A stretch of 64,000 nucleotides of DNA from a virus (IMGVR_UViG_2929701070_000001:32001-96000); one strand, 5' to 3'. Positions 916-34,920 are shown, numbered from the stretch's first letter. Program-made: numbers and translations. The notes: a model not told the origin generated them from the sequence alone.

Positions 916-3354
916 GTGGCAGTGACGACGCACCGGCCGGCGCCGCTGCCCACCAGCGGCCCCGCAGCCAAGCCCGCCCCCACGCCGGTGCCGGTGGGGG
1001 CGGCGAAGATGCAGACCTGGTACATCGACCCGACCGACGACCGGCGCAAGCGCATGCCGTACCCGGTGCCGGTCGACGCCGACGACCACCTGACCGCGCA
1101 CGTGCGGCACCAGTGCTCGAAGATGCGCAACCTCAACGGCGGCGGCAAAGAACGCTGCACCGAGTTCGCGTGGATGCTGCCTGGGGAGGAGCAGTTCTGC
1201 CAGCGGCACGGCGAGAAGCTGACGCCGCCGCCGTCGAAGCGCACCCGCCTTGCCGCTGTGGTGGGGGAGGCGAAGCGGCTGCACAGCGACTCGGCCGCCC
1301 CGTGGGCGCTGCCTGCCCTGGCCGCCGCCGCCGACACCGCCGCGCACCTCGCCCTGGTGTCGCCGACCGGGACGCTGCTGGCCGCGCCCGCCGCCGCCGG
1401 CGTCACCTACCTGCTGCGCAAGCGCACCCTCACCAAGCGTGCGGTGGCACGTAACCGCATCGAGATGGGCCAGCGCACCGGCAAGCGGGTGCGCGCCATC
1501 GCCCGCCAGGCGCGACGCGACGCGGCCGTCGCCGCCGAGACCGGACTGTGGGCCACCGCTCTCACCGCCACCGACCTCGCCACCTGGCCGGGCCGGATCG
1601 TCGCCGCTGCCGGCATGGTCCGCTGGGCCGTCGGCATGCGCGGCTGGTGGGTCGCCGCCGAAGAACGCCGCGCCCAGCCGCCCGCGCCCGCACCTGTGCA
1701 GGTCACCCCAGCCGACGACGTCAAGCCGGTCGACAACCCCGACCCGGTGCGGCTGCGTGCCGTCACCACGTGGACGATGCTCATAGGCTGCGCCGGCGGG
1801 CCGCTCGCCGGCACCGAACTGGTCGACTACCAGCAGATGCCCGCCTGCGAGGTGGGCGCGCACTCCCGCACCCGGCTGCCGAACTGGACGGCGAAGGTCG
1901 TCGCGAAGATCCCCGGCTCCATCAACATGCGCGAGTCCCGCCCCAACCTGCTCGGCCGGATCGCCGCCGCCTACGGCTGCACCTACGCCGACGTGTCGTT
2001 CAACGCCGACGAGTCCGACCTGTCCATCGGCTGGCTGCGGGTACAGCCGGACAACCTGCTCGCCGAAACGAAAATCTGGCCGGGACCGAAGGCCGCGAAC
2101 GACTGGCGGCGCGGCCGGTCCCGCATCGGCCGGTTCGATGACGGCCGCGACATCTGGTACCAGTGGTGGACGAAGCAGGGTGCCGCCCACGACCTGATCT
2201 CCGGGTGCACCGGCTCCGGCAAGTCCGAGCTCGTCGCGCAGCTGCTGCTCGCGTCCCTGCACTCCGACGGTCTCGTGCTCGACTGGGTGGGTGACCCGCA
2301 GGGCGGGCAGTCGTACGGGCAGTTGAAAAACGCCGTCGACTGGTTCGCCCGCGACACCTCCGAGATCAAGCTGATGCTGCTGGCGGCGTTGAAGGAAATG
2401 CTGCGCCGCAACGACGAACTGTCAGCGAACAACATCAAGACGTGGCAGCCCACCCGGGCGATGCCGCTGCTGGTCATCACCCTGGACGAAGTCCAGTCGT
2501 ACATCGATGACCCGATCATCCTGGAACTGGTGGAGAAGCTGGTCGGGATGGGCCGCAAATGCGGCATCAAGATGCGGCTGATTACCCAGATTCCCGCCGC
2601 CTACAACCTGGGCGGCTCCACCTACATCAAGGAGCAGTTGAAGGCTGGTCAGACGCTGATCTTCCGGGCGATGACTGACATCGCCGGCCGGTCCGCTGTC
2701 GACGGCGACTGCCCGGTCGACCCGACCGAGCTGCCGTCGGTCTGGGGTGCGAACACGTGCGCGGCTGGTGAGACCACCGCCGGGCTGATGTTCGTGCAGG
2801 GCGTCAACGGCCGTGACGTGTATGGCCGCGCCGACTTCACCGGCGAGGACATGGGGGTGTGGCTGGTCGACGGGGAAGGCCAGTCGACGCTGACGCCGGG
2901 GGTGTTCGGGCCGGAGGCGCAGCAGGAGTCGGGGCCGCTGTGGGGCGACCGGAAGGAACGGGCCGCGCTGCTGCTCGCCGCGGGTCGCTCCGACGCGGAC
3001 CTGCTGTCCGGCGGCAAGGCCCTCGAACTGCTGGAGGCCGCCGCGGTTACGCAGGTCACCCCGCAGGCGCTACGCGAGCCGGCGCCGCCGTCGCCCGAGG
3101 CGCAGCGCAACGCGCGCGTGTCCCGGGAGGTGGTGCTGGAGGCCGCGACCAAGGCCGCGAACGACCGCGGCCTGGTCACGAAGGACCAACTCATCGCGCA
3201 GCTCGCCGGGATGGCGGAGCAGATGAAAGACGGCACCCGCGACAAGGCCCTCACCGATCTTGTGGCGGACGGGAAGCTGCGCCGGGTCAAGAACGGCCTG
3301 TACGAGGTGCCTGGGTTGGCGGCCACCCTGTTCGACGCGGGAGCGGCCCGGTGA
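916..3354 (+). CDS. traB: FtsK/SpoIIIE-family DNA translocase, actinomycete TraB-like conjugation protein
   Basis: Walker A GCTGSGKS, Walker B LLVITLDE, GRKCGI..ITQ motif, N-terminal hydrophobic segments, C-terminal winged-helix-like region (ALTDLVADGKLRRVKNGLY); SD AAGGAGG before GTG 916. Confidence 0.8.
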   Translation: MAVTTHRPAPLPTSGPAAKPAPTPVPVGAAKMQTWYIDPTDDRRKRMPYPVPVDADDHLTAHVRHQCSKMRNLNGGGKERCTEFAWMLPGEEQFCQRHGEKLTPPPSKRTRLAAVVGEAKRLHSDSAAPWALPALAAAADTAAHLALVSPTGTLLAAPAAAGVTYLLRKRTLTKRAVARNRIEMGQRTGKRVRAIARQARRDAAVAAETGLWATALTATDLATWPGRIVAAAGMVRWAVGMRGWWVAAEERRAQPPAPAPVQVTPADDVKPVDNPDPVRLRAVTTWTMLIGCAGGPLAGTELVDYQQMPACEVGAHSRTRLPNWTAKVVAKIPGSINMRESRPNLLGRIAAAYGCTYADVSFNADESDLSIGWLRVQPDNLLAETKIWPGPKAANDWRRGRSRIGRFDDGRDIWYQWWTKQGAAHDLISGCTGSGKSELVAQLLLASLHSDGLVLDWVGDPQGGQSYGQLKNAVDWFARDTSEIKLMLLAALKEMLRRNDELSANNIKTWQPTRAMPLLVITLDEVQSYIDDPIILELVEKLVGMGRKCGIKMRLITQIPAAYNLGGSTYIKEQLKAGQTLIFRAMTDIAGRSAVDGDCPVDPTELPSVWGANTCAAGETTAGLMFVQGVNGRDVYGRADFTGEDMGVWLVDGEGQSTLTPGVFGPEAQQESGPLWGDRKERAALLLAAGRSDADLLSGGKALELLEAAAVTQVTPQALREPAPPSPEAQRNARVSREVVLEAATKAANDRGLVTKDQLIAQLAGMAEQMKDGTRDKALTDLVADGKLRRVKNGLYEVPGLAATLFDAGAAR

Positions 3355-4028
3355 GCGCGCCCACCCGCCCGCGGGTGCCGCGCCCCCGCCGGCCCGCGGG
3401 GGAGCGGCGGTGGAGTGTCGTGTACGGCATCCCCACCCTGCCCGTCGACCGGGACGGCCGCATTATCCCGGGCGCCCCGCCGGTGGTCGGCTACATCGGC
3501 CAGTCCGTGCAAACAGTCAAGCAGCGCGAGGACCAGCACCGCGCCGACCAGCCGTTCGGGGACACGATCTGCGGCGGCTCGTGGGTGATCGAGGAGGGCC
3601 TGTGGACGCAGGCCGAGTTGGACGCGCGGGAGCGGCACTACATCCGTCACGGGGCGGTGCTGGTGCCCGGCCAGCCCGCTCAGCGGCCCGTATACAACTA
3701 CGAGCACAACCTCGACAACCCGCACCGGATCGAGGTGTGGCGGGCCAGGCAGCACCGGCAGGTTCGCGAGCCGGGCTGGCAGCCCGCCAGCGGGCGCGTG
3801 GACGTTCAGGCGACCGGCGGCGTGGGCTGGGCGGGCCGCGGCTGGTGGCTGGCCCGTCAGCCGGCCGCGTGGTGGCTGCTGCTGGCCGTGGTGGCGGTCG
3901 CCTGGGTGGGGTCGCTGCCGCAGGCGACGTGGTGGGACGGCGCCGTGTACGTGGCCTGCGCCGCCTGCACGATCGCAGGGCTGCGGATGCCCGGCACGCG
4001 GCGCCGCAGGCGGGGGAGACGACGGTGA
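3351..4028 (+). CDS. GIY-YIG nuclease-like protein with C-terminal transmembrane segments
   Basis: VVYGI...GYIGQS...R..QH...E..YI...YN motif order; two hydrophobic helices and an Arg-rich tail; GTGA overlap with traB stop. Confidence 0.6.
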   Translation: MSAPTRPRVPRPRRPAGERRWSVVYGIPTLPVDRDGRIIPGAPPVVGYIGQSVQTVKQREDQHRADQPFGDTICGGSWVIEEGLWTQAELDARERHYIRHGAVLVPGQPAQRPVYNYEHNLDNPHRIEVWRARQHRQVREPGWQPASGRVDVQATGGVGWAGRGWWLARQPAAWWLLLAVVAVAWVGSLPQATWWDGAVYVACAACTIAGLRMPGTRRRRRGRRR

Positions 4029-9959: not shown

Positions 9960-11957
9960 TTAGGCCGCACGCCGGCGGGCGGCGAGCAGGTCAGCGAACA
10001 CGTCCAGCGGCGCGACCGGGGCCGCCTTCGGCTCGGTGACAACGGCGGGCGGCGGGGCGACATCGGGCGTCGGCTCCGGCTCGGCCGGGTGGGTGCGCTC
10101 GGCGCCGTCGGCGGCGAGTAGCGCGGCATACGCGGCCAGGTACGCGGCGGCTTTCTCCTCGTACGCGCCCGGGTGCCGGTCGGTGAAGTCGGCACCCACG
10201 TAGTCATCCGGGACGCCGCAGACCCGCCGCCTGGCGATGCTCATACGCTGTGTGCGTGCCTTCTGGTTTCGCTTGTTCGTGTCCGCGATGCAGGAGGCGA
10301 CGAGCCTTTCCCACCGCTCGACGGCCGTCGTCTCCGGCTGCACCTCAACGACCGTCTCCGGCTCGGTGACGGGTCCGGGTGCGTTGACCGGCTCGGCTGC
10401 CTCTGCGGCAGGCTCCGGCATGCTTTCCGGCTCGGTGGGGGAGGCCGGCAACTCGGCGCGGTGCACGGCCAGCGGCTGCCACGGCTTGAACTCCCGCCGC
10501 GTGCCGTCGGCCAGGATGACCGCCCACCACCCGATGAACCGCTCCCCGGAGTAGTCGGGCCCGTCGTGGGGGATCACCTCGGCGACCGGGCCGCAGAACC
10601 CGCGCAGCAGCCGTTCGCCCATGCCAGCGAAACCCCGATCCCACCACCCGGCGACGATGTCGCCCGGCTGCACGTCCCGAACGTGCAGCCGCTCCGGCTC
10701 ACCCTCCGGCATCGTCCACGCGGGTTCCACCTCCGGCATGGCCGGCAGGCTGGCCCGGATGTCCGGCACCAACTCCCCGGCGGTCAGCCGGTCGAAGATG
10801 TCCACATAGGCGGCGGCCAACGCTCGGCGGGTGTCGGTGTCGTCGGGGTGCGGCTGGAACGCCTCCACCTCCGACCGCGCGGCGCCCAGGTCCAACCCGT
10901 GGGCGATGCGCTGCGCCCACCGCACGTGCTGCGCCTCACGCCGCGACGCGTCGTCGTGCCCGTCACGGTCGATCCACCGGGCCAAGTCCTCCCAGCGGGC
11001 CACCTTGCGCGCCAGGTCGACGGGCCACGCCTCGCCGTTCGGTGTGTCGAGCTGCATGCCGTCGCGCCGCCGGCCGCCGAGGTCGTCCCACGGCACGGTA
11101 TCCGTCCACGACCACGGCTGACCGTCGGCACCGTTCGGCTGCCCCAGCCCGATCAGCGGCGGCACACTGACGCTCTTACGGTTGACCCGGACTACCGGAT
11201 ACCAGACGCCGCGCACGTTCACCAAGTCACCCTTGCGGAAGTGCTCCGGCCCCCACGGCACGAACTCGCCCGACTCGGCCAACTTCCCCAGCTCTGCCCG
11301 CCAGTGCTCAATTTCCTCGGTCAGCCGTGCCACCTTGCTGGCGGCGCGCTCCCCGTAGTCGCGCTCCAACTTCCGCCGCTCCACCTCCAACCGTTCGATA
11401 CGCCGCATGGTCACCCGGGGATCCTGCCGGTGGGCCAGGTTGTGTCCGACCGCCTCGGCGCGGTGGGACAACTCGCGCGCCTTGTCGGCCGCCTCCCATG
11501 ACTTCTGGGTGTGGGCGTGGATCTTCTCGAACGCCCGCCGGTGCTTCCGCTCGGAGTGGTGCCCGATCTTGATGGGCTCCCCGAAAGGCATGTGGTCGCT
11601 GATCGCGTCGGCGGCGGCCCGCCGCGCCGACGACTCGGCGGCGGCCTTCCCGGCACGCTCGGCGTACCGGTCGGCCCGCCGGTCGGCGCGCTCGGCGCGG
11701 TCGGCTTCCCGCTCGGCAGTGGTGCGGGGGGTGTTGTCGATGTTCACGGTCACGTCGTGTCCGGCGTCGCGCAGTGCGTCGGCGGTGCGGTTGATGCGGG
11801 CGCGGTTGGCGTCCTTGTCGCGGCTCTGCCGGAGGTAGATGCCGACGTGCCGGCTGAAAGCCCAACCGTTGGCCTTGCAGATTTCCCATACGCCGTCACC
11901 CTTGCGAGATCCGGCGAGGGTGGTGCCGTCGGCGTGGGTGTGGGTGATGGTGAGCAC
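9960..11957 (-). CDS. DUF3560-domain multidomain protein
   Basis: ITHTHADGT...ERADR..Y...MPFGEPIKIGHHSERKHRR signature; SH3-like GDLVNVRG..VVRVNRKSV; SD GGGGGA before GTG 11957. Confidence 0.8.
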   Translation of the reverse strand: MLTITHTHADGTTLAGSRKGDGVWEICKANGWAFSRHVGIYLRQSRDKDANRARINRTADALRDAGHDVTVNIDNTPRTTAEREADRAERADRRADRYAERAGKAAAESSARRAAADAISDHMPFGEPIKIGHHSERKHRRAFEKIHAHTQKSWEAADKARELSHRAEAVGHNLAHRQDPRVTMRRIERLEVERRKLERDYGERAASKVARLTEEIEHWRAELGKLAESGEFVPWGPEHFRKGDLVNVRGVWYPVVRVNRKSVSVPPLIGLGQPNGADGQPWSWTDTVPWDDLGGRRRDGMQLDTPNGEAWPVDLARKVARWEDLARWIDRDGHDDASRREAQHVRWAQRIAHGLDLGAARSEVEAFQPHPDDTDTRRALAAAYVDIFDRLTAGELVPDIRASLPAMPEVEPAWTMPEGEPERLHVRDVQPGDIVAGWWDRGFAGMGERLLRGFCGPVAEVIPHDGPDYSGERFIGWWAVILADGTRREFKPWQPLAVHRAELPASPTEPESMPEPAAEAAEPVNAPGPVTEPETVVEVQPETTAVERWERLVASCIADTNKRNQKARTQRMSIARRRVCGVPDDYVGADFTDRHPGAYEEKAAAYLAAYAALLAADGAERTHPAEPEPTPDVAPPPAVVTEPKAAPVAPLDVFADLLAARRRAA

Positions 11958-11994
11958 TATTCCCCCTAGAATCTCTGCCCGTACTCTACGGGCA

Positions 11995-12023
11995 ATGTTA
12001 CGGGATGGGTTGACCTGGCACAA
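11995..12023 (-). promoter_or_regulatory. Early-type promoter of the DUF3560 gene
   Basis: Minus strand TTGTGC-N17-TAACAT, followed by hairpin TGCCCGTA-GAG-TACGGGCA. Confidence 0.6.
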
Positions 12024-12063
12024 CCGGCCAGCCCGACACCGCGCCGGGCTGGCCGACCGTCCA

Positions 12064-12780
12064 CTACCGACGCGCCGCCAGCAGGTCGGCGAACACGCCC
12101 GCCGCCGTCTCGGCCGCCGGCTCCGTCGCCGGCTCGCCCACCTCGCCGGGCTCGGCAAGCCGCCAGTGCGGCGCGGACAGGATCACCGACCCCCGGTCCG
12201 TCTCGGCGATCAGCCCGCCCGGCTGCACCCCGTGCACGGTCGCCGACACCGCGGGCGAGTCGCACACCCACACCTGCCCGACCTCCGGTGCCGGGGTGGT
12301 GTCGGGGCGCATGCTCTCCGGCCCCACGTAGGCGGGCCCGAGGGCGGCCCGGTTCACCGTGTACACCACGTCGCCGTCGGGCGCGTGGGTCACCTCGGCG
12401 ACAACGCCGGCCGACTCGGTGCCCTGCCACCCCCACCGCACACCCACCCGGTCGCCAACCGCGTACGCGTCGGCGGATCCGTACCCGCCCGGCTCGGCCA
12501 GCTCGGCGACCGGCTCCGGCTCGGCGGCGGCCCTGATCAGGTCACGCTCGGCGCGGGCGGCGGCGTCCCGGTTCGGGAACGTCGGCGCCTGCTCGAACGG
12601 GCGCGAATCGCACACGATCCGCCATTTGCGGTCGGGGTAATTGCGGCTGACGCACCCGGACGCGCCGGACGGATACCGGACGTTGGTCACGTACCACCCG
12701 CCGTGACGCCACGGCGAGTAGGTCGGCTCCCAATCGTCGGCGGCGTCGGCGGGGGTGTGGGTGTGGGCGGTGCTGGCCAT
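12064..12780 (-). CDS. Hypothetical multidomain protein ending FADLLAARR
   Basis: SD CAGGAGG; Trp/Arg N-terminal domain plus SH3/KOW-like YAVGDRVGV domain. Confidence 0.7.
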   Translation of the reverse strand: MASTAHTHTPADAADDWEPTYSPWRHGGWYVTNVRYPSGASGCVSRNYPDRKWRIVCDSRPFEQAPTFPNRDAAARAERDLIRAAAEPEPVAELAEPGGYGSADAYAVGDRVGVRWGWQGTESAGVVAEVTHAPDGDVVYTVNRAALGPAYVGPESMRPDTTPAPEVGQVWVCDSPAVSATVHGVQPGGLIAETDRGSVILSAPHWRLAEPGEVGEPATEPAAETAAGVFADLLAARR

Positions 12781-12899
12781 TGGTCGGCCCTCCTGTCTGG
12801 TCGGTTCGGTGGTTGGTTGGTGGTTGTGGTTGGTTCCGGGCGGTTGCCCCGCCGGCCGGTACCCGGTACAGCACCGGCCGCGGGGGTGGCGTCCGGCGC

Positions 12900-14039
12900 C
12901 TACGCGATGCGGGCGGCGGCCAGGTCGGCGAACGGGCTAACCGGTGCGGGCGCGGGCGCCACCTCGGCCAACGGGTTGGCCAGCGTGCACGCCGTCGCCC
13001 CCGGGCCGAGGATGCCGCACGGGTGCACGGCGCACCCCGTCAACACCTCCATGCCGTCCCACACGCCCGGCAGGTACGGGCCGGGACGCTCGCCCCGCAA
13101 CCGCCAGCACCCGCAGCCGAGCCGGTCGACCTGCTCGGCCACGAACCGAGCCACCGTCCGCGCGCCGGTCGTGTCCTCACACCACACCCGCACCCCATCC
13201 CACGCCCGCGGGCGGGTGCCGGCGGCCAGGTCGGCAGGCGTCAACGTCACCTCATGCCGCCCGGCACGTGCCACCGTCACCACATCGGCCGGGTCGAACC
13301 ACACGACCACCTGCGCGGCCGTCCCACCCGCCACCGTCTCCACCTGCTCGACACGCCGCGCGCCGAACTCCCGCCGCACCGCCTCCACCACCTCGGCGGA
13401 CGTCGCCGGCTCCGGCAGCGGCACCCCCGACGCGGAAACACGCCGCACCACCGCGTAACGCTTCCGCTCGGCCGTGGCGTGCGCGGCGTACTGGCACACC
13501 GTGTAGGCGTAGGAGGCGGCAGCGCCGACCGCCTCCGCGTCGGGGTGCGCGTGCTCCCGCCCCACCGCGTGGAAAGCGGCACCGTTCGCGACACCCGCCC
13601 CGCTGCGGTCGACCACGCCGATCACATCCGCGCCGACCTCGGTGCACACCACGATGCCCGCAGCCTGATACGCGGCGTTCTGCGCGGCGCGCAGCGTCTC
13701 ACCGGCCGCCCGTGCGGCGTTCCCGTCGGCCAGCGGCGCCAGCTCCCGCAGAATGCGGGCCATCTCCGCCAGCCCGCACGCGTCCAGCCAGGCGGGCGCG
13801 CACACCCTCGCCAACCAATCGAGCGACGCGAACCCGTACGCGGCGTTCTGCCGGGCGGCCTGCACCGCCGGCCCGGTGACGGTCGCGACCACCTGCACCC
13901 GGCCGCCGACGTGCGCGGCGTGGGCGATGTGGGCGACGCTGCCGCAGGTGCCGACCAGCCGCACACCGTGCGCGGCGTCGGGCATGATGGGCAGCCGCTC
14001 GGCGGGGCGGCTGTCGGTGGTCCTGATGGATGCGTACAT
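12900..14039 (-). CDS. Hypothetical protein ending FADLAAARIA
   Basis: SD CAGGAG before ATG 14039; Ala-rich, Cys cluster near the C-terminus. Confidence 0.65.
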   Translation of the reverse strand: MYASIRTTDSRPAERLPIMPDAAHGVRLVGTCGSVAHIAHAAHVGGRVQVVATVTGPAVQAARQNAAYGFASLDWLARVCAPAWLDACGLAEMARILRELAPLADGNAARAAGETLRAAQNAAYQAAGIVVCTEVGADVIGVVDRSGAGVANGAAFHAVGREHAHPDAEAVGAAASYAYTVCQYAAHATAERKRYAVVRRVSASGVPLPEPATSAEVVEAVRREFGARRVEQVETVAGGTAAQVVVWFDPADVVTVARAGRHEVTLTPADLAAGTRPRAWDGVRVWCEDTTGARTVARFVAEQVDRLGCGCWRLRGERPGPYLPGVWDGMEVLTGCAVHPCGILGPGATACTLANPLAEVAPAPAPVSPFADLAAARIA

Positions 14040-16151: not shown

Positions 16152-18974
16152 CTACACGCCGGCAGCCACCCCGGCAGGCGTGAAACCGCGCGCCGCCAAC
16201 TGATCGGCCACAATCGCCCACACCTGCGGCAGATCGGAGGCGGCAACACGGTCCGGCGTGACCGTCACCCGCTTAGCCTTACGGTCCGGCACAATCGACA
16301 CCTGCCCCACCTTGACGCCGGCGTCACGCATGAGCTGCGCCACCTGCGGCCGTACCGCCTTGAGAACCGACCACAGCGGCATGCCCGCCGGGTACACCCA
16401 CACCGGCACCGGCACACCGTCCACCGACGCCAGCTCGGCGACCGGACCCGGCGCCGGGGCGGGCGACACCGGCACCGGCATGTCATCCGCCGCCCACCCG
16501 GCCACCACCTCCGCCGCCGTGTCCGGCACAGGCCGCGCCTCCGTGTGCTGCGCCCGCCACTGACCGGCGTTCACCCGCCCGTGGGTGGCAAACCACTCCC
16601 GCAATTCCTCCGACGCATACAGCTCCACCCGCGACGCCGGGCCGGACCACAGCGACCGGGGGTCGATACCGGCAGCCTCCCCGGCCGCCGTGAGCATGTG
16701 CCCCCGACAGTCAGTCTCGGCCTGCTTGAACCACACGCCCACCATGTCGGCGTAGTCGCGTCGCAGGATGGCTGCCCGCGACGGGCGCGGCGTACGGGCG
16801 GCAGCCTCGGCGGCAGCGGCAGCCTCGGCGGCTTCCCGGTCCTGCGCACGGTCGCACGCGTCGGCGATCCCGTAAAGGGTGTCCCCGTCGTCGGGGTCAA
16901 CGTCCGCCATGACGGCCAGCGCCACGGCCAGCGCGTCACTGTCGACCGTGTCCAGACCGGCCCACAGGTCGACCGGCTCGGCGGTGTTGGCGTCGACCAC
17001 GGCAACGGGCAGCGTCGCCCCGGCCTCCGGCGTCGGGTCGGCCTCCGGCTCCGGCTCGGCGGTCAAGTCCACGCGACGCGCGACCGCCACCAACACACCG
17101 CCAACGGTCACGCCGTAATCCGGGTCCGCCTCGGCCTCCGCCTCCGGCTCCGGTTGGGTCGGGGTCGGCTCGGCCTCTACCTGGGCGACCGGCCCGGCGG
17201 CCGTCGGCTCGGTCAGCGCGTCGGCAGTGATGTTGCCCAAACCATCGATCATGCCGAGGTCACCCCAGTTGCGGCGGGCCGCCGCGCGCGTGTCAGCGCA
17301 CGCGAACAGTTGACCCTGTACCGCCTCCGGCTCCGGCTCGGCGACCGACACGGGCGCACGGTCAGCGACACTCGGCGCGTCCACGGGGAACGCCTCCGCC
17401 TCCCCGTCGGTGGTCAGCTGGACGACGTCCGGCACCGCCTCGGCGACGGGCCCGGCCTCCGGCTCCGGCAGTGCGGGCAGTTTGTCGAACACGTCCCACG
17501 GGGCGTGCGCCTTCCCGCAGTAGCACACGAACTGAGGCGACCGGCACACGTTGTCGCCAATCACGGCAAGCCGCACCGTGTAGTCAGGCGCAAACCGGGT
17601 GTACGTGCCGCCGTTGAAAATCCAATGCCCATCCGCCCCGGCGTGTCGGCCGGACCGTTGAACGGTGCCGAGGTGTCCGCCGCCGGTCAGCACCCACACG
17701 CCCGGCCGGATAGCGTCCGGCACAGGCACCCGCGCGGCGACCGGCTCGGCGGGGGTCGGCTCGGCACCCGCCAGCACGTCCGGCGACACGTCGCACGGCT
17801 CGGCCTGGCCGTCCCCTCCCGCGACCGGCTCGGGCTCGGCCATGGGCAGAGCGGCCAGCATGTCCGACCACCCGTACACCGCGCCCGACGCGCCCGTCTC
17901 CCGGTAGCCGGGGGCGACGCGCTGCCCGTCCGCCACGGCCTGCCGCGCGCCGTCCATGTCACCAGCGGCGTACGCGTCCAACGCACGCGCCATGATCTCG
18001 GCAGCCGGGTCAACCGTTTCCGGCTCCGGCGCGGCGTCGGTCGTGGCCGGATCGACGGTGACAGCCTCCGGCTCGGCAATGATCGGCAGATAGTAGGCGT
18101 AAAAGCCACCGAACGCCGGAGACTCCGCACGATCGAACCGGTACGGACGACCGAACGCACGCGACACAAGCGCGGCATCCGGGCGGGCACCCTTGACCGA
18201 CACTCGGCCCGTTTCCAGGCTGTACCGCACCCGCACCCGGTCCGACCCGCGCAGGTTCCCCGCACGGCGCGCGGTCTGCGTCAACGACCGGCACGCACGG
18301 TCAACGTCCACGATCGGCGTGACCGGCTCGGCCACGGTCTCCGGCTCGGCGTCCGGGGTCACCTCGGCCACCGGCTCGGCGTCACGCCGGACGGCGTACC
18401 GGTCAGCGTCACCGTCGACCGGGGTCAAGATGTCTTCCGACACCGACCGGGACCCGTAACCCGGCAGGGTGAGCCGGTAGTTACGGAGCGCGTACTCACC
18501 ACCGGGGTACGCGTCACACACAGCCTCCACCGTCGCCGTGAGGTATTCGGCGTAACCGGACGTGACTCGCACCTCGGTACCGACCGGGTACGCCGTACGG
18601 AAGTTGACCCCCGTCGGGCACGTGACGCACACCGCCACGGGCTGACCGTCCGCACCGTCGGTGATCTCGGCCTTCCCGTACATGTTCACGCCGCATCGGG
18701 CGCACATGACACGGTGAAAGTCGATCTCTTCCCGTAGTGCGGTGACAGCCTCGGCGCGGACAACGTCGGCAGGCTTGCTGCGGGCGGAAAGTTTCGCGTT
18801 CACGGTTACCCGCTTCCCGCAGTATCCCCATTCGGTGCCATCGGACAGCTTGATCAGGGTGAATGACAACTTGCCGTAGAACTTGCTACCGAGGTGCGAC
18901 ACGTTGCGCACGCTGGTCACCCGGAACTCTTCACCCCGTACGGTCACGTGGTCGCCCATGCTCTGCGGTGCCAT
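16152..18974 (-). CDS. Large modular (polyvalent-type) protein with EPEP linkers
   Basis: 940 aa; several small domains (Zn ribbons, SH3-like) separated by acidic Pro-rich linkers; SD GGAGGT. Confidence 0.75.
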   Translation of the reverse strand: MAPQSMGDHVTVRGEEFRVTSVRNVSHLGSKFYGKLSFTLIKLSDGTEWGYCGKRVTVNAKLSARSKPADVVRAEAVTALREEIDFHRVMCARCGVNMYGKAEITDGADGQPVAVCVTCPTGVNFRTAYPVGTEVRVTSGYAEYLTATVEAVCDAYPGGEYALRNYRLTLPGYGSRSVSEDILTPVDGDADRYAVRRDAEPVAEVTPDAEPETVAEPVTPIVDVDRACRSLTQTARRAGNLRGSDRVRVRYSLETGRVSVKGARPDAALVSRAFGRPYRFDRAESPAFGGFYAYYLPIIAEPEAVTVDPATTDAAPEPETVDPAAEIMARALDAYAAGDMDGARQAVADGQRVAPGYRETGASGAVYGWSDMLAALPMAEPEPVAGGDGQAEPCDVSPDVLAGAEPTPAEPVAARVPVPDAIRPGVWVLTGGGHLGTVQRSGRHAGADGHWIFNGGTYTRFAPDYTVRLAVIGDNVCRSPQFVCYCGKAHAPWDVFDKLPALPEPEAGPVAEAVPDVVQLTTDGEAEAFPVDAPSVADRAPVSVAEPEPEAVQGQLFACADTRAAARRNWGDLGMIDGLGNITADALTEPTAAGPVAQVEAEPTPTQPEPEAEAEADPDYGVTVGGVLVAVARRVDLTAEPEPEADPTPEAGATLPVAVVDANTAEPVDLWAGLDTVDSDALAVALAVMADVDPDDGDTLYGIADACDRAQDREAAEAAAAAEAAARTPRPSRAAILRRDYADMVGVWFKQAETDCRGHMLTAAGEAAGIDPRSLWSGPASRVELYASEELREWFATHGRVNAGQWRAQHTEARPVPDTAAEVVAGWAADDMPVPVSPAPAPGPVAELASVDGVPVPVWVYPAGMPLWSVLKAVRPQVAQLMRDAGVKVGQVSIVPDRKAKRVTVTPDRVAASDLPQVWAIVADQLAARGFTPAGVAAGV

Positions 18975-20328: not shown

Positions 20329-22745
20329 CTACCGGTATCGGGGGAGCGACCAGGCCAGGAACCACGATGCCGGCCAGGAGGCGATCCACGCGCACGGCCA
20401 GAACGGGTCGGCGTACTGGGTGCCGGGTTCGGTGGCCTCGCTGGTCTGCCAGTAGGTGAGCAGCAGGAGGAACGCGACCGCCCAGATGATCGCGCAGCAG
20501 CAGGCGACGCGGCTCATTGCGCTGGCCAGTACCAGGTGATGAGGCCCCCGCCGGCCGGCTGTGCCCGGTGAAGGTCAATGGTGCTGGTGATCAGGCCGCG
20601 GTGCAGCTCGTGCTCGATGCGGCCGACGCGTGGGGCCACCATCCGCACCGGCACCCCGTCGCTGCCGACGGCGTGGCCGACGATGGTGTGCACGGTCTCG
20701 TTGTCGTACCAGCCCTCCAGGTGGAACTCCCACACGATGAGCAGCTGCGGGACGCGGACCGTTGAGCGGGTGAGCAGGTCCCCGGTGGGGTCGAAGGATG
20801 GCTCGGTCAGCCGCACCTTGCCCTTGCCGGCCCACGCGTACTCCTCGGGCAGCGGCGTGACGGTGTCGGTGGGGACGGGTGCGCCGACCCGGGCGGCGTA
20901 GATGTCGAGGAGGATGCCGGGCGGCTCGAACCGGCCGCCGCACGGGTAGCCGTCGGGCTGGGGCATCCGGCATTCGGCGCCGAACTTGCTGGGCGACCAG
21001 GTGAAGCGACCGCACCGCCCGCACTGTTGGGAGGGGGCGTTGTCGCGCAGGTGCGCGGGCCACGTCGACTGGTCGGTCACTGGTTCGCTCCGTTCAGCCG
21101 GACGACGCCCTGCACGCCGCACAGGTCGCAGGACCGCTCGTCGGGGTTGTTGTCGGGGGTGACGGCGACGCACGTGACGCCGAAGAGTTCCCCGCAGCTG
21201 CACTCGACGGCTGTGCCTCGGAGGTGTGTGTGGTGTGAGCTGTGCGGGTCACGGGCCGTCTGATCGGCTTGTTCGGTGGCAGCCCGTTGGCGTGCCCGCT
21301 GCGCCATGCCTTCCACCCAGGCGTTGTCACTCACCGGGTCATCTCCTCAACGTCGTGCAGGGGGATTAGCCACATCTGGCATGCGGACGGTTGTCCACCG
21401 ACGCGCCGTGCGGTCGCCTTGGCCCAGTTGACCTGGAAGTGCTCTGTGTCGGCCTCGGTGTGCGCCTTCTCGTAGTCGGCGTCACCGTAGTACCAGAGCC
21501 GGCAGCCGCGGCCGTCTTCGCGGAAGCGGATGCCTTCGCGGTCCTCGAATGTGAATGACCAGCCCATGGCCTTCGGTGCCCCGGCGTGGTCGATGTTGTC
21601 CGCGAGGAACCGCAGCCTGCGGGCGAGCCGCTGTCGCAGGGTCACTGGGTTCGGTCCTCTCCGGCTGGTTCGGGCGGTGCCCACCGGCAGTCGTATGGCG
21701 TGCATCCGTGGTGCCCTTCGATGTCGCAGGTGCGCGGCAGCACGACCACCCGTGCCACGTCCTCGAACATGCAGCGGCTGACCGGGAACGGCACCCGGTC
21801 GTCGTCGGCTGTGCCCGGCCCGTGCACGATCCCGCCGGATGCGTACCGGGGCTCGATCTCGCTGTGCTCCGGCTGCTCTACGGTCATGCGTCCTCCAGGA
21901 TGCGGCGGAGGATCCGGTGGCCCTGGTCCACCAGTTCCTCGGGGGTGGGTGGGGTGGCGGCGTGCTCGTGGTCGGCGGGTGGCCAGCCCGACGGCACGTA
22001 CCGCAAGGGGGTACCGCCGAGCGCGCAAATCGCCACCGTGTCGGTCGGTTCGGCGCCACACCACCAGCAGCGCAGCCCATTCACGCTGGCACCCCACGCC
22101 CGGCTCGCGTGCATGTGGGGCAGATTCCGACGGATGCCCGCCACCCGTCTGGGCTGTTCGGCGGCTGCATGGGGTCCGGCACGCTCGACGGCTTCCCGTT
22201 GATGTCGCGCCACTCGTGCCCGCCGAATGGCTGCCCGCACAGCGGGCATGGCAGCCAGAAGAACCCGGCTTGGCGTGCCCACCAGCGGTGCATGGCCCGG
22301 AAACGGTAGGGGACGAGCAGGCGCGGCCACTCCAGCAGTGCGGGGTAGGAGCGGGCGGACCGTCCGGGGCGCAGCCGGAGCCGGATTTCGTGGCGGCTCA
22401 TAGCTGTGGTCCGGGCGTTGACGGGGGCGCGGTCCGCCGGGTTTGAGCTATCAGGTCTACATGCCTGCGGCGGCGTTCCATCGCTTCTTGGGTCAGCCGC
22501 TGCGTCTGGTCGATGCGGCGCATGGCCTCGGACTCGTCGGCGGTGCCGTACAGAACGGTGCGGATCACCCGGACGCGGGTGTCCTCGGGGATGCCTTCGT
22601 TGTCTAGCGCCAGGTCGAGCAGTTCGAGCATGCGCTGCGCCCACTGCATCTGCCAGTGGTACTGCGGGTCGTTCAGCCGCGCCTCACGGGCGTTGGGCAT
22701 CCGCTGGAGGTAGCGGTCGAGCTCGTCACGTACGCGACTGGTCAC
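20329..22745 (-). other. Chain of ~8 translationally coupled small hypothetical genes (20329-20517, 20514-21080, 21077-21334, 21331-21645, 21642-21887, 21884-22084, 22081-22401, 22398-22745)
   Basis: Each start overlaps the previous stop by 4 nt; many CxxC motifs. Confidence 0.65.
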
Positions 22746-23143
22746 GGCCGCCGCCACCTCTCCTGGTAGCCGGGCTTATCGTCGTACGGCAGGGCCATGG
22801 CGCTAAGGATCATCTCCGTGACCGGATCCACGTACCGTTCGACGGCGAACTCCGGCGGACCCGCACTGGAGTCGTGGATGACGCATCGCTGGGAGCGGGC
22901 GCAGGGACACGGGGTGAGGTCGAGCGCGGCGAGGATGCGCCGCTTGGCGTCCAGCTCGGCGAGGCGCTGCTGGCACATCTTCTCCACGTTCGGCCAGTCG
23001 TGCCAGCCGGGGATCTCCTTGCCGAGCAGCCTCGGTTCTTTCAAGGTCAGGACTGTCTGCTGCGCCCAGTAGAGCAGCGTACGGGTGCTCGCCTCGGCGG
23101 CGGTGATCTGCTCGTGGAGCCAGGTTGTCAGGTTGTCGGGCAC
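22742..23143 (-). CDS. DUF6221-like protein
   Basis: L..WL..QI...LAELDAKRRIL...MALPYDDKPGYQERWR. Confidence 0.7.
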   Translation of the reverse strand: MPDNLTTWLHEQITAAEASTRTLLYWAQQTVLTLKEPRLLGKEIPGWHDWPNVEKMCQQRLAELDAKRRILAALDLTPCPCARSQRCVIHDSSAGPPEFAVERYVDPVTEMILSAMALPYDDKPGYQERWRRP

Positions 23144-23496
23144 GGCCGCCACACCTCCCGGTATCCGGGCTGGTCGGCGTACGCCTCCGCCCGCATGCGT
23201 ACCGCCGTCTCCCACGTGTCACGCCGCGCGTCCCAGGCGGGGCCGACGCGTAGAGGGTCGCGGAACAGCAGCCGTTCGTATTCGGCGAGAATCCGCCGGT
23301 CGGCCGCTACCTCCCTAAGCGTCAGCTCCGGGCTGTGCGCCTGCATGTGGTCTGCGACTGCGTCTAGGTCGGATGAGCGGTTGGCGACTTGGTCGGTGAG
23401 TGCCTGCCATTCTCCGGGCCATTCGGCAGCAGCAGCGCGTGCCACCCGCTCGCGGGTATTGAGTACGTGGTGGAGCCAGGGGATGAGTTCGTCCAC
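23128..23496 (-). CDS. DUF6221-like protein (tandem paralogue)
   Basis: DELIPWL...HSPE.TLREVAADRRIL...AYADQPGYREVWRP. Confidence 0.7.
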   Translation of the reverse strand: MDELIPWLHHVLNTRERVARAAAAEWPGEWQALTDQVANRSSDLDAVADHMQAHSPELTLREVAADRRILAEYERLLFRDPLRVGPAWDARRDTWETAVRMRAEAYADQPGYREVWRPCPTT

Positions 23497-24631: not shown

Positions 24632-24727
24632 TCGACTGATTGCACTCACCGTGACGGCGCATCGATAACCGTTAGCCCGTCTCCGGGATTTCGCCGACAT
24701 CCCGTCACAGACAGTGAGGTGAGTGCG

Positions 24728-25303
24728 GTGACGACGATCGTGGCGTGCGGCGACGGCAGCACCGTGTGGATGGCCGCCGACTCGGCCACCAACGTGTACG
24801 AACGGCCGATCATCGGCGGGGTACGGAAGCTTCTGCGTCTGCGGGCCGGCGCTGGCTACCAGGTGCTGCTGGGCGTCGCCGGTGCTGGCGGCCTCCCGGG
24901 CTGCCTCGCCGCCAACTTGAAGATCGATGCGGTGCCGCTGCCCGGTGAAGACGTGCACGCGTGGGCGCACGCCATCGCCTGCGCGATCACCGAGATCGCC
25001 GACGACGCCGGCCTGATGGAAGACGGCGCGCTCGACGGAAGTGTGCTGCTCGGCTGGGGCGGCCGTCTGTGGACGGTAAGCCAGTCGTGTGCCTGCGCGC
25101 ACCCGGACGGTCGGGCCGCGATCGGCTCCGGCGAAGGCCCCGCGATCGGCGCTCTCGACGTGCTCCTAGACCAGGGCACCGAACCGGCCGTCGCGGTCAC
25201 GCGGGCCGCCCAGGTCGGCATCACCCGCGACCGCTACTCCGGCGGACCCGTGCAGGTTGAGCGATTGGCGGGCCCTGACGAACCTGATGAGGGTGACCGG
25301 TGA
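24728..25303 (+). CDS. Ntn-hydrolase, HslV/proteasome-beta-like peptidase
   Basis: N-terminal TTIVA, MAADS, GVAG, AIGSG..AIGAL, D.YSGG. Confidence 0.75.
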   Translation: MTTIVACGDGSTVWMAADSATNVYERPIIGGVRKLLRLRAGAGYQVLLGVAGAGGLPGCLAANLKIDAVPLPGEDVHAWAHAIACAITEIADDAGLMEDGALDGSVLLGWGGRLWTVSQSCACAHPDGRAAIGSGEGPAIGALDVLLDQGTEPAVAVTRAAQVGITRDRYSGGPVQVERLAGPDEPDEGDR

Positions 25304-31737: not shown

Positions 31738-32979
31738 GTGCCGACCGACGATGGGAAGCTCACCGCCTCCGAGGCCGCCGCCATGTATGCGCTGGTGCAG
31801 GCGCAGGCCGCGTTGCGGCAGCAGATCACCCAGATGGCTGTGGCGGCGGCGACGTTGCCGTGGACGACGTTCTCGGGCTGGTTCTCGTCGGCGGAGATCG
31901 GTCAGCTTGTGGCGAGTGTGTTGCGGATCGTGCAGCCGCTGCAACGGCAGGCCGCGCAGGTCACCGACGCGTTCCTGGCCCGGCAGATGTCCATCACACT
32001 CGGCCGGCGCGTGGAGCCGGTCGGGGTGATCGACGTGACCCGGCTGCGGCGGGCCCTGCCCGAGCCGGGCGACGCCCGGGAAAACCCGACCGCCGGGTCG
32101 ATCGACCTGGCCGATGTGGGGGAGGGCCGCGACCAGTCGTGGTTCACCGGCAACTTCATCCCCCGCGACACCCCCGAGATCGTGGACTACAGCCTGCCCG
32201 AGGACGGCCGCGGGTGGATGAACCCGATGGTCGTGTACGGGCGGCCGGCGGACACCTACCGCTATCTCGTCAGCGAGCAGGACGTCGCGCCGGCCGTCGC
32301 GGTGCAGCGGGCGGTGCTGCGGGCGCAGCAGATCGCCGAGATGGACGTCGCCCTCGCCATCCGGGAGCAGTCCCGCAAGGCTGTTGTGCTGAACCGGGCG
32401 GCGACTGGGTTCCGGCGGATTCTGCACCCCGAGCTGTCGCAGTCGGGTTTGTCGTGCGGCTTGTGCGTGGTGGCCGCGGACAGGATCTACACCAAGGGTG
32501 AGCTGTTGCCGCTGCATCCGGGCTGCAACTGTGAGGTCGCGCCGATCGTCAACGGCGTCGACCCCGGTTTGACGCTCAACGACGCTGACCTGTCCCGCCT
32601 GTACGAGGCGGCGGGCGGCACCACGTCGGGCCGGAAGCTCCAAAACCGGGTGCGGGTGTCAATCACCGAGCACGGCGAGCTGGGTCCGATCCTGGTCCGC
32701 TCGAACCATCACTTCCGTGACCCGTCCGAGGTTGCGCGGAGCAAGGCCGAGCAGTCGGAGTCGACGCGCAGGCGCCGCTCCGACCAGGCCGCCGCCCGCC
32801 GCGTCCGCACGGTCATCGACAGCAGCGACCCGGCGGAGTTCATGCGCAGGCGTATCGCCGCGTTGGAGGAATCGATCGCCGCGATGGAACGTCTCCAGGC
32901 GGCCGGTGAGGACTTCGCCGATCAGATCATGCAGCGGCGCATCGACGTTGAGCGGCTGCGTAACACAGTGCAGCTGTAG
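31738..32979 (+). CDS. Minor head/MuF-like protein
   Basis: GFRRILHPE...CGLCVVAADRIY...PLHPGCNC. Confidence 0.75.
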   Translation: MPTDDGKLTASEAAAMYALVQAQAALRQQITQMAVAAATLPWTTFSGWFSSAEIGQLVASVLRIVQPLQRQAAQVTDAFLARQMSITLGRRVEPVGVIDVTRLRRALPEPGDARENPTAGSIDLADVGEGRDQSWFTGNFIPRDTPEIVDYSLPEDGRGWMNPMVVYGRPADTYRYLVSEQDVAPAVAVQRAVLRAQQIAEMDVALAIREQSRKAVVLNRAATGFRRILHPELSQSGLSCGLCVVAADRIYTKGELLPLHPGCNCEVAPIVNGVDPGLTLNDADLSRLYEAAGGTTSGRKLQNRVRVSITEHGELGPILVRSNHHFRDPSEVARSKAEQSESTRRRRSDQAAARRVRTVIDSSDPAEFMRRRIAALEESIAAMERLQAAGEDFADQIMQRRIDVERLRNTVQL

Positions 32980-33074: not shown

Positions 33075-34920
33075 ATGTCACTTGTTGAGCACGCCAAGCG
33101 TGAACTGGAGTTGTGCGGCCAGTTCGCGGAAGACCCGGCGTACGCGCAGTCCCTTGTCGCGGCGGTGGCGGCGTTCGCCTCGTACGGCCACTCCGGCGGG
33201 TCCGCTGGCATCGCCATTCACCAGCTCACCACGCTGCTCCAATACGGCAACCTTGCGCCGTTGACGGACGCCCCGGACGAGTGGATGCACGTGACCGACG
33301 CCGATGGCGGCCTGTGGCAGAACCGCCGCAACTCGGAGGCGTTCTCCACCGACGGCGGCAAAACCTACTACCTGCTCAGCGAGCGGACCGGCGACAAGAA
33401 GGTCATGCACCGGTCGAAGCCGGCGAAGGCGGGTGCGTGATGGCCCGTATCCAGATCCTCCAGTTGCCGCCGTACGGACCTGACGGTGAGCAGCCGTTCG
33501 CGCTGATCGTGGACCAGTGCGAGATGGCCTTCCCGATCCGCCAACTCACTGGCTCGGATCCGAGCGAGGCGCAGCCGTTCGAGGTGCGATCGTCCAGTCT
33601 GGTGGCCGTGCCGCCGGTCGATGTCACCGAGGGCGAATCGGAGCAGGACCGCTGGCAGCGGTTCGCCGAGCAGATCGGTGCCCGTGGCGCGTTCGTCACC
33701 CCGGAGCGTGTCGACATCGCGGACGAGGAGCCCAGCGACGACATGCTGATCCAGTTCGACCACGCTGCGCTGCTCGACACGGTCAGCACCGCCGTGCGGG
33801 CGCACTTGGAGTCGACGGAGGCGTCGGACGCGTTCCGCGCGGACATGGAGCGGCGTGCCGCGGCAGCAAGGGTCGACGGCTGATGCACGCCTTCTCGGTC
33901 GACTACCGCAAGCGTGATGGTGCCGCCAGTTCGGGCGGCCGGGTGTCGCGTGGCTTCTGGCTGAACGGCATCCCGCGTCCGCTGATCCTGTGCCGCATGT
34001 TCGGCCACCGTCCCGTGGTGGATGGCACCACAGGGTTCCGCGATGGGGACCTCGGTTCGCGGTGGGTGGTGTGTGACCGCTGCGGTGTGCGCCCCGACCC
34101 GCAGAGCAGCCTTGACCCGGTCCGGTGGAACATTGGCGACCGGTACGGCGGCCCGTGGCAGAGCTCGCCGTCCGGCAAGGTGAAGCGCGATGCGGTGCTG
34201 ACCCCGCAGATGCTTCCGGGACCGTGGCCGGTAAAGCCGACCGGCAAGCTCGGCGGTCAGATCGTGCTCGGCACCCGCGACCTCACGACTGGCGTCACGC
34301 TCAAGGTCGGCAACAAGGGCTCCGAGCACACTCTCGCCGCCAGCTTCCACGTGCCGTGGATTGGGGCGCTGTACCTGCACACCGAGCGGTTCGGTGCAGG
34401 TGTGGTGCGGCGGCTCAACCCGGTTGGCTACGACTCGCGGGTTGTTGAGTTGCGGGCGCACGACGGACACCTGTTCTGGCGGCTGTGGGCTAGGCGGGAC
34501 CACTGGTCCCGTAGCGATCCGTGGTGGATGCACGGGTCGGTGCAGATCGACCCCCGCACGATGCTGCTCGGGCCGAAGCGGTACGTGTACACCAACCACG
34601 GGTCGAAGGTCACCGAGACAGTGCGAATGCCGCACGGCGACAGCCACCAGGTGCAGTTGCAGTTGCAACGTTGCGCGTTCGGCCGCAAGCGGGGCCGGAA
34701 GAAGCTGTCGTGGTCGGTGGACTGGGAGGCCCCGAGCGGGATCCCGACCAAGCCGACCGACCGGGGCCGCGTTTACGGCTCCGGGGTGCCGGTGACCGAC
34801 GCGTCGGTTGCGGCCGGCACCTGGCAGTTTGAGGCCGCCGTCCGCATCGCCGAGCGGATGACCGAGCAGCGCACCCGCAACGACTGGCGGCCGGAGAGAA
34901 CGGCGACGGCACGTTCATGA
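33075..34920 (+). other. Three coupled hypothetical genes inserted in the head module (33075-33440, 33440-33883, 33883-34920)
   Basis: TGATG stop/start overlaps; no recognisable structural motifs. Confidence 0.6.

Follow-up and report, generated by a model that had tools for sequence, protein, structure and literature searches.

A 64,000-nucleotide stretch of viral DNA (IMGVR_UViG_2929701070_000001:32001-96000; hereafter the window, meaning the whole stretch analysed) is a 70%-GC prophage stretch in a 7.07-Mb actinomycete genome (G000), and encodes three adjacent, unrelated proteins (g17, g18 and g19) that share a C-terminal peptide, FADL[L/A]AAR. This peptide is a local form of a broader family of tails, D-P-[W/F]-[A/G]-[D/P]-L-L-[A/R]-A, carried by a rare prophage lineage of Micromonospora-group genomes. 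Sequence comparisons indicate that the tails are selected at the peptide level, are modular, have been swapped or lost between orthologues and co-occur with a phage-encoded beta sliding clamp, and that the clamp has been fused to a large scaffold in relatives. The reading favoured here, to which about an even chance is given, is that the tail would be a docking peptide gathering accessory proteins on a clamp-centred hub, formed by the phage clamp or by a scaffold of the type of g23, a 940-residue neighbour. The tagged genes form the promoter-distal end of a minus-strand operon:

23346 down to 9510, minus strand: operon holding the tagged genes (from gene calls).
12900-14039, minus strand: g19, 379 amino acids, an orphan (open reading frame and gene call by GC content at third codon positions, GC3).
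12900-12935, minus strand: g19 tail, PFADLAAARIA; the protein C-terminus reads ...VSPFADLAAARIA.
12064-12780, minus strand: g18, 238 amino acids, with a small widespread N-terminal domain (residues ~12-90) and a poorly modelled middle (open reading frame and GC3 gene call).
12064-12096, minus strand: g18 tail, VFADLLAARR; the protein C-terminus reads ...AAGVFADLLAARR.
9960-11957, minus strand: g17, 665 amino acids, a DUF3560 protein (open reading frame and GC3 gene call; Pfam PF12083, E 1e-26).
9960-10001, minus strand: g17 tail, VFADLLAARRRAA; the protein C-terminus reads ...PLDVFADLLAARRRAA.

The initial annotation of this DNA had claimed that three adjacent unrelated proteins share the tag, and this description holds: the genes are as described and no BLAST similarity is detected outside the tail (g17-g18, E 0.014 over 28 residues including the tail; g17-g19, E 0.15). 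A six-frame scan of the whole assembly, covering 7,652 coding-like open reading frames, found three copies of FADL[LA]AAR, and all three are those of g17, g18 and g19, 1-4 residues before the stop. Genome-wide, tails sharing six of seven residues are found in 34 of 43,670 pairs of neighbouring genes, compared with 18 of 45,000 random pairs. The only other triple in this comparison (C4:101039-106537) comprises three adjacent genes of similar size (~600 amino acids) and is taken for paralogues; to judge from tail sequences and gene sizes, the other neighbouring pairs look mostly like full-length paralogues, with one case resembling polyketide-synthase-type docking ends. A chance origin of the three shared tails is excluded. 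Across 275 genomes of the genus, G000 alone has more than one match to the tail DNA pattern. Besides the window, 29 loci in the genus were read (six further matches, which had no locus, were left out); 27 of these matches are internal or in a non-coding frame, and two are at the C-terminus of one unrelated protein family.

A flexible linker had likewise been described ahead of each tail, and Pro, Ala, Glu, Thr, Val and Gly do account for 0.69-0.78 of the 45 preceding residues. The three motif copies differ by synonymous codons, as first reported, and the proposal that selection acts on the peptide rather than the DNA is borne out by orthologues, which either keep the tail family over different linkers or are tail-less. 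AlphaFold2 models are consistent with this architecture. In g18, the N-terminal domain (residues 12-90) is modelled with a predicted local distance difference test score (pLDDT) >90 and the rest at <50, with the tail as a lone low-confidence helix (223-237). In g17, residues 1-500 are modelled confidently, 504-654 have pLDDT <50 and the tail forms a short helix (655-664; pLDDT ~50). With each modelled tail forming a short isolated helix after a linker of low confidence, the tails would act as accessible recognition elements, flexibly tethered to the protein. Comparisons of the protein bodies came back blank, which leaves room for other families: a fold search with g18 gave no solved-fold match (best Z 4.2), Foldseek gave no match for g17 at E <= 1e-3, g19 has no Pfam or PHROG family and no usable ESM Atlas look-alike, and tblastn of all three against sequenced phages found no match.

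The wider family emerges from relatives. When 33 collected tails are compared, 31 align on the aromatic residue as D(-2) P(-1) [W/F](0) [A/G] [P/D] L L [A/R] A [L/R], and the wording after the two leucines is particular to each element (AAR in G000, RxL in genome G021 and [A/E][E/D]L in genome G625). The exact-motif search proposed in the initial annotation would find next to nothing, because the wording is element-specific. A scan of IMG/VR for PWADLLA gave 23 matches and no convincing tag (two end 2 residues before the stop, in spurious-looking short frames), and a protein search using the consensus tail alone returned the query itself as its sole match. Related loci were sought by DUF3560 alignment, which yielded G021 alone from the genome collection and none from IMG/VR; within the genus, Pfam DUF3560 is present in only 2 of 275 genomes.

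G021 belongs to the same genus and carries a homologue of the g18 N-terminal domain; of the 96 genes called there over 93 kb, nine neighbouring ones encode tagged proteins. Their shared tail is PDPWGPx[L/I]Rx[L/M], and six of the seven genome-wide matches to its DNA pattern fall inside the tagged element. This set comprises two DNA/S-adenosylmethionine methyltransferases, a DpdA-DUF6884 protein, a SprT/YgjP-like metallopeptidase, a DUF3560 orthologue and four proteins without assigned function. The four tagged proteins of G625 are an h5-like protein, a methyltransferase, DpdA and a DUF3560 protein. Between g17 and the DUF3560 orthologue of G021, identity is 41% over ~500 residues, beyond which the linkers are unrelated and the tails differ. 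A search with the C-terminal part of g17 against 5.8 billion proteins returned 36 sequences, query included; half of these DUF3560 orthologues (18/36) are tailed, in a graded series from VFADLLAAR through PWADLLAAR to PDPWGPxIRA, and the other 18 end straight after the conserved domain. The series runs VFADLLAARRRAA, NVFADLLAARQRAA, NPWADLLAARNAA, DPWADLLAARNAA, DDPWALVLKAAGVER, DPWVPVLIETG..., PDVWAPVLDLIEAGR, PDPWGPFIRAMQTTAA and VSGWAELLETVGGAR. Most of the 333 homologues of g18 consist of the N-terminal domain only and are tail-less, and the two closest end in GVLADLLAARR and GVFADLLAARR. Since orthologues of g17 and homologues of g18 differ in tail presence and type, the tail is a portable module, gained, swapped or lost independently of the protein body.

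One further consensus copy is internal, in a member of the replication-side operon that begins at the right side of the window:

59929-60999, minus strand: g75, 356 amino acids, with DPWADVMAAAL at residue 164 (motif 60478-60510), from the proteome scan and a DNA pattern match at G000:C3:99851.

This protein has no Pfam, PHROG or other family assignment, and its internal copy is presumed to be functional. A small protein starting MTIRFRS...ETAPWADLLAAATANA, with the consensus core near its N-terminus, is encoded on four IMG/VR contigs (L174, L175, L183 and L193). Among other look-alikes, LFDAGAAR at the end of a TraB-like protein was rejected as a tag for want of a linker and of an aromatic-plus-Leu-Leu core, and AADLAAAR near the end of a PhoD-like phosphatase-domain protein of the tail region (51231-53192, plus strand; ending ...AQAAADLAAARWGIHL) has neither linker nor aromatic core and was judged a chance match. 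The N-terminal SDVFADLVGQ of a host protein was set aside too, being read as what we take to be a clamp-loader-type AAA+ motif.

The position of the conserved core bears on one of the uses suggested in the initial annotation, that of a degron. In this scenario the tail would have early proteins destroyed at a set time, either by ClpXP or by the phage HslV-like peptidase (24719-25303). Two of the tails end AA and IA, and the prophage does hold an HslV-family peptidase gene. However, in the aligned tails the core stops 4-14 residues short of the C-terminus, and the residues that follow vary (RR, AA, IA, GV, MV, NS and others across the 31), while the motif lies ~30 residues from the end of one DUF3560 orthologue and is internal in g75. 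A degron is very unlikely because the conserved core ends ahead of a variable C-terminus.

The company that the tails keep bears on the choice of partner. Besides the host dnaN, G000 has a second DnaN (G000:C3:88764-89906), ~6.5 kb past the right end of the window; it has all three Pfam clamp domains and lies in the prophage replication module beside ThyX, dCTP deaminase, SSB and DnaB. No phage DNA polymerase was found among the proteins scanned. In G021, a 1,002-residue protein directly upstream of the first tagged genes is a complete beta sliding clamp over its first ~440 residues, and in G625 a 989-residue clamp-plus-extension protein occupies the equivalent place, so that in both genomes a clamp-plus-extension gene heads an operon with tagged genes. 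Among the 401 genomes of the family, 24 others have a DUF3560 orthologue, and 60 kb was fetched around 18 elements from 16 of these; the remaining eight (G306, G334, G384, G395, G433, G536, G571 and G609), with partial matches or short contigs, were left out. The element of G625 is the only one of the 18 that is tailed and the only one with a clamp. A phage clamp is thus present in all three tailed elements (G000, G021 and G625) and, within 60 kb, in none of the 17 tail-less ones, each of which has a DUF3560 orthologue and most of which have a methyltransferase or DpdA, all untagged. The SSB gene does not track the tails: 13 of the 17 elements without tails have one, and none turned up close to the tagged genes of G021 or G625.

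The phage clamp of G000 is 78% identical to the host DnaN. At positions that 12 host DnaNs share without exception, it carries 59 substitutions. Most of these lie in domain I (33 within residues 3-93) and not at the cleft, and 21 agree with what the clamp fusion of G021 or G625 has there; these substitutions could mark a phage-specific domain I surface or a host-phage recombinant. The segments TDRYRL, GANYPPxRSLFP and LxMPIR, which are taken to form the clamp cleft by analogy with Escherichia coli residues, are conserved in all the phage clamps (G000, G021 and G625). The closest solved relatives include 5ah2 and 5agu, presumably griselimycin-clamp complexes. In an Arthrobacter phage with a related clamp, the helicase-methylase encoded beside the clamp gene ends ...PSLFDLEDLPDAS.

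The distribution among the tailed elements is less kind to a second use suggested earlier, a transfer signal read by a TraB-like ATPase, by which tagged proteins would cross to a recipient with the DNA:

916-3354, plus strand: TraB-like FtsK/SpoIIIE gene, 812 amino acids, with a C-terminal winged-helix-like region, at the left side of the window with regulators.

A TraB-like gene lies near the tagged operon in both G000 and G021 (h40), and in type VII secretion it is ATPases of the FtsK family that bind signals at the C-terminus. However, the two TraB proteins are only 25-28% identical, and the tailed prophage contig of G625 has no TraB-like gene, the only matches in that genome being weak and on other contigs (E 4.6e-7 and 8e-4). 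TraB-type pumps are not known to translocate proteins. Given that the TraB-like gene is missing from the tailed prophage contig of G625, the probability of such a signal is close to negligible. Of the address-label uses listed in the initial annotation, docking on a hub fits best, as the tails co-occur with a clamp and a clamp-fused scaffold family stands beside them.

That scaffold family is represented in the window by a modular protein without a clamp:

16152-18974, minus strand: g23, 940 amino acids, clamp-less member of the scaffold family (phmmer).

Searched by phmmer against 1.84 billion representatives, g23 gave 542 matches. Two of the best four have full beta-clamp domains, P0159 (1,049 amino acids) at 249-634 and P0158 (1,270 amino acids) at 267-635, and these clamps are flanked by g23-like modules: residues 1-236 of P0159 resemble g23 1-226 (E 1e-48) and residues 752-863 of P0158 resemble g23 411-519 (E 1e-29). 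P0157 and P0160 have no clamp, as is the case for g23. The extension of the G021 clamp fusion (h4) matches P0159 and P0160 (h4 659-728 with P0159 685-749, E 1e-4, and with P0160 447-500, E 1e-6), and residues 626-769 of the G625 fusion match g23 263-414 (E 3e-4). Compared directly, the G021 extension and g23 are weakly similar (hhalign probability 26%, E 7e-4 over 47 columns); it is the intermediates P0158-P0160 that make the link convincing. Among the 401 family genomes, G625 is the sole match to the G021 extension. By these comparisons, g23 is a version, lacking the clamp, of a scaffold that is joined to a beta sliding clamp in relatives. This makes it a candidate for the hub or for an adaptor to the hub.

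The initial annotation had also seen a weaker tag, IVADQLAARG, near the end of g23. This claim falls: the residues ahead of it belong to the linker classes at a fraction of 0.49, and in the family alignment the segment falls on a helix that is conserved in the C-terminal domain, with equivalents in homologues such as ...VWAVVASVMGAHGF and ...VWAVVAEVAARHGL. As it lacks a flexible linker and corresponds to a conserved domain helix in the family, IVADQLAARG is a domain feature and not a tag. A domain at residues ~700-820 of g23 (...SEELREWF..HGR.T..EW...) is the source of most of the best 150 of the 542 matches; it ends many proteins of widely differing length, including PHROG head morphogenesis and MuF-like families.

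The peptide itself has some likeness to known clamp-binding motifs. The published consensus, QL[S/D]LF or Qx[D/E][L/M]F, tolerates variation, with MuC of phage Mu carrying QHDLF and QPDLF and Mor only DLF (PMC12867686 and PMC9690074, as given in their accessible sections), and A-D-L-L or G-P-L-L of the tag fits its positions 2-5. In this genome, four of 5,677 called genes have a clamp-type C-terminal end (ELTLF of NucS, plus QLSLL, QAGLF and ELVMF), and A-D-L-L of the tag is compatible with the first three of these as well. More distant DUF3560 proteins provide a second line of evidence. Eighty metagenomic DUF3560 loci were collected; of the 73 with a complete C-terminus, three have PW-type tails and two (L208:5262-6359 and L236:308-2380) end in QLALTF and QLAMTF after Pro/Gln/Ala-rich linkers. 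An ending of the form Q-h-x-[LM]-x-F is found in none of the 5,677 genes of the present genome. These canonical-looking ends in distant DUF3560 lineages would be independent support for docking on a clamp.

Several observations weigh against that reading. Position 1 of the tag is W or F in all 31 aligned tails and never Q, and the conserved stretch of ~10 residues is non-canonical for a clamp motif. The tag is also modelled as helical, and known clamp-binding motifs bind in an extended conformation. The presumed cleft segments are nearly invariant while the tag wording differs from element to element, and such element-specific wording after Leu-Leu suggests co-evolution with a variable receptor; with an invariant cleft set against variable wording, the tails might really dock on the scaffold or elsewhere on the clamp. 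Major capsid proteins of G625 and G021 are 66% and 59% identical to that of G000, and one siphovirus head module is common to the tailed elements, which are one phage lineage. The contrast of three tailed with 17 tail-less elements is consequently not independent and does not separate the clamp from the capsid. DNA-acting clients are seen only in relatives, g17, g18 and g19 being without assigned function, and a C5 methyltransferase, Mom and a PAPS-reductase-like protein of relatives are untagged.

The shared head module leads to a different account, in which the tail would bind inside the procapsid, to a scaffold, portal or MuF-like protein, so that tagged anti-defence proteins are injected with the DNA. 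The structural genes lie to the right of the operon:

26958-54904, plus strand: complete siphovirus head, tail and lysis module.

Dar proteins of phage P1 are reportedly packaged and injected with DNA in this way, and a short C-terminal peptide behind a linker is the format of encapsulin cargo peptides. Residues 677-806 of g23 match PHROG 'head morphogenesis' and MuF-like families in the C-terminal portion of the latter, and a MuF/protease-like head protein (31738-32979, plus strand) contains FADQIMQRR 15 residues before its end; this FADQIMQRR is not conserved in the homologue in G625, and none of the scaffold, portal or capsid proteins in the head modules of G000 and G625 has a conserved copy. 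The tagged genes stand in a clamp- or scaffold-headed operon on the strand opposite to the head genes and are not among the late genes. Moreover, the substrate of DpdA and methyltransferases is DNA being replicated inside the cell that makes the phage, where no injection is needed, and distant DUF3560 proteins end in canonical-looking clamp motifs. The methyltransferases and SprT-like peptidase tagged in relatives are domain types of predicted-packaged polyvalent proteins (PMC5512222, in the part of the text available), a point on the side of loading. Weighed together, capsid or portal loading is considered unlikely.

A conserved host hub other than the clamp is also conceivable, such as a reader of DDPW[A/G] in SSB tails, RNA polymerase, or a chaperone or unfoldase adaptor. 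Both the phage SSB (G000:C3:90615-91097) and the host SSB (G000:C7:155996-156523) carry DDPWASAAPAP in their disordered tails, with the D-P-W-[A/G] start of the tag, one metagenomic tail has eight Asp ahead of PWGPLL, reminiscent of acidic SSB tips, and the constancy of the clamp cleft across tag flavours would be accounted for. Nevertheless, SSB does not follow the tails among the elements, as noted above, and a scan of the proteome found no other host protein that has the motif in a flexible tail close to the C-terminus, all other terminal matches lying in folded domains (for example, that of ThyX). None of the papers retrieved in a literature search on the DDPW element contains it; in its accessible part, a study of ClpX and SSB concerns only the last 10-19 residues of SSB (PMC7847540). 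A host receptor would also leave unexplained why the tails are confined to elements with their own clamp or scaffold, and this explanation is judged quite unlikely.

Docking on a clamp-centred hub, in its simplest form, would work as follows. At the end of a flexible linker, the tail would tether unrelated accessory proteins of this prophage lineage to a single shared hub, most likely the beta sliding clamp of the phage or a g23-family scaffold of the kind fused to the clamp in relatives. The enzymes would then ride on the phage DNA as a non-covalent 'toolbelt', their clients in relatives being DNA methyltransferases, DpdA, the SprT-like peptidase and DUF3560 proteins. We infer binding of the peptide to clamp or scaffold, the surface that it would occupy, and a purpose in DNA modification or anti-defence from these comparisons. 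A fuller version is held tentatively, at rather less than even probability: in a temperate actinophage lineage, a clamp fused to or partnered with a large modular scaffold of the g23 family would form a hub that recruits swappable DNA-modifying and anti-defence enzymes through an element-specific address peptide of the DPW/F-A-D-L-L-A-A-R type. The result would be a non-covalent 'polyvalent protein' on DNA, with each phage using its own tag dialect and modules being gained, lost or exchanged via a 10-residue tail.

Known systems offer partial precedents. In phages T4 and RB69, gp43, gp55 and gp33 reportedly dock on the gp45 clamp via their C-terminal tails, so that, as proposed here, several unrelated phage proteins with a matching C-terminal tail share a phage-encoded clamp. 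The candidate clients here differ in being accessory or DNA-modifying proteins rather than polymerase or transcription factors, and the clamp is fused to a large scaffold in relatives. As with known beta-clamp-binding motifs, which are carried by polymerases, repair enzymes and phage regulators such as MuC and Mor of Mu, a short peptide at a flexible terminus would let unrelated proteins share one ring-shaped hub. The tag is unlike them in having Trp or Phe at position 1, usually Pro ahead, 3-4 more conserved residues after and an element-specific wording. Relative to published clamp motifs it would thus be a new variant: non-canonical, element-specific, borne by proteins of temperate actinophages and accompanied by a clamp-scaffold fusion family. 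Encapsulin cargo peptides and capsid-targeting sequences are likewise short conserved terminal peptides behind flexible linkers on unrelated cargo; in contrast to these, the shell gene lies outside the tagged operon, no head protein carries the motif, and the tails track the clamp or scaffold gene. The T4 parallel is mentioned in the accessible part of PMC12867686.

Polyvalent proteins share with the tagged set their methyltransferases, SprT/zincin-like peptidases and anti-defence modules (Iyer et al. 2017; PMC5512222, in the portion available), and the G021 methyltransferase matches PHROG families with profiles 2,789-3,925 positions long. They differ in that their modules are fused in one giant, predicted-packaged polypeptide with 2-15 conflict-related domains, whereas the tagged proteins are separate, each with one or two recognizable domains; any assembly of them would be non-covalent because they are separate proteins that share a tail. 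Neither the clamp nor DUF3560 occurs in the accessible text of that paper (0 occurrences each). No description of these tails was found in the literature searched on clamp motifs, phage clamps, DUF3560, SSB or polyvalent proteins.

If the tails do dock on a clamp-centred hub, the phage would keep its DNA-modifying and counter-defence enzymes on the genome that it replicates, with no need for a fusion protein. Orphan genes could then be recognized by their tail sequence as further parts of the machine, and the tail would be the only handle on g18, g19 and the DUF3560 protein here. The range of peptides known to bind a clamp or hub in Actinobacteria would also grow, in a group whose clamp cleft is a target of antibiotics. 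If the tails instead load capsids, no short cargo tag would have been described before from a siphovirus. In both cases, peptides and reporter fusions offer a direct test of the tag.

Other genes of the window stand apart from the tagged set. At the head of the minus-strand operon are two adjacent genes of one family:

22742-23346, minus strand: DUF6221 gene pair, one full-length and one a C-terminal half.

The HslV-family peptidase homologue mentioned above (PHROG 1040; plus strand) lies upstream of the terminase genes. A TraB-like gene and a complete siphovirus structural module share one element, and the phage may also move by conjugation. Within the head-gene module is a homologue of Tad3 (anti-Thoeris; 33075-33440, plus strand; Pfam PF25185, E 3e-37), and the gene of a 534-residue Ro60/TROVE-plus-VWA protein (57200-58804, plus strand) separates the replication-side operon from the structural module, whose lysis end faces it.

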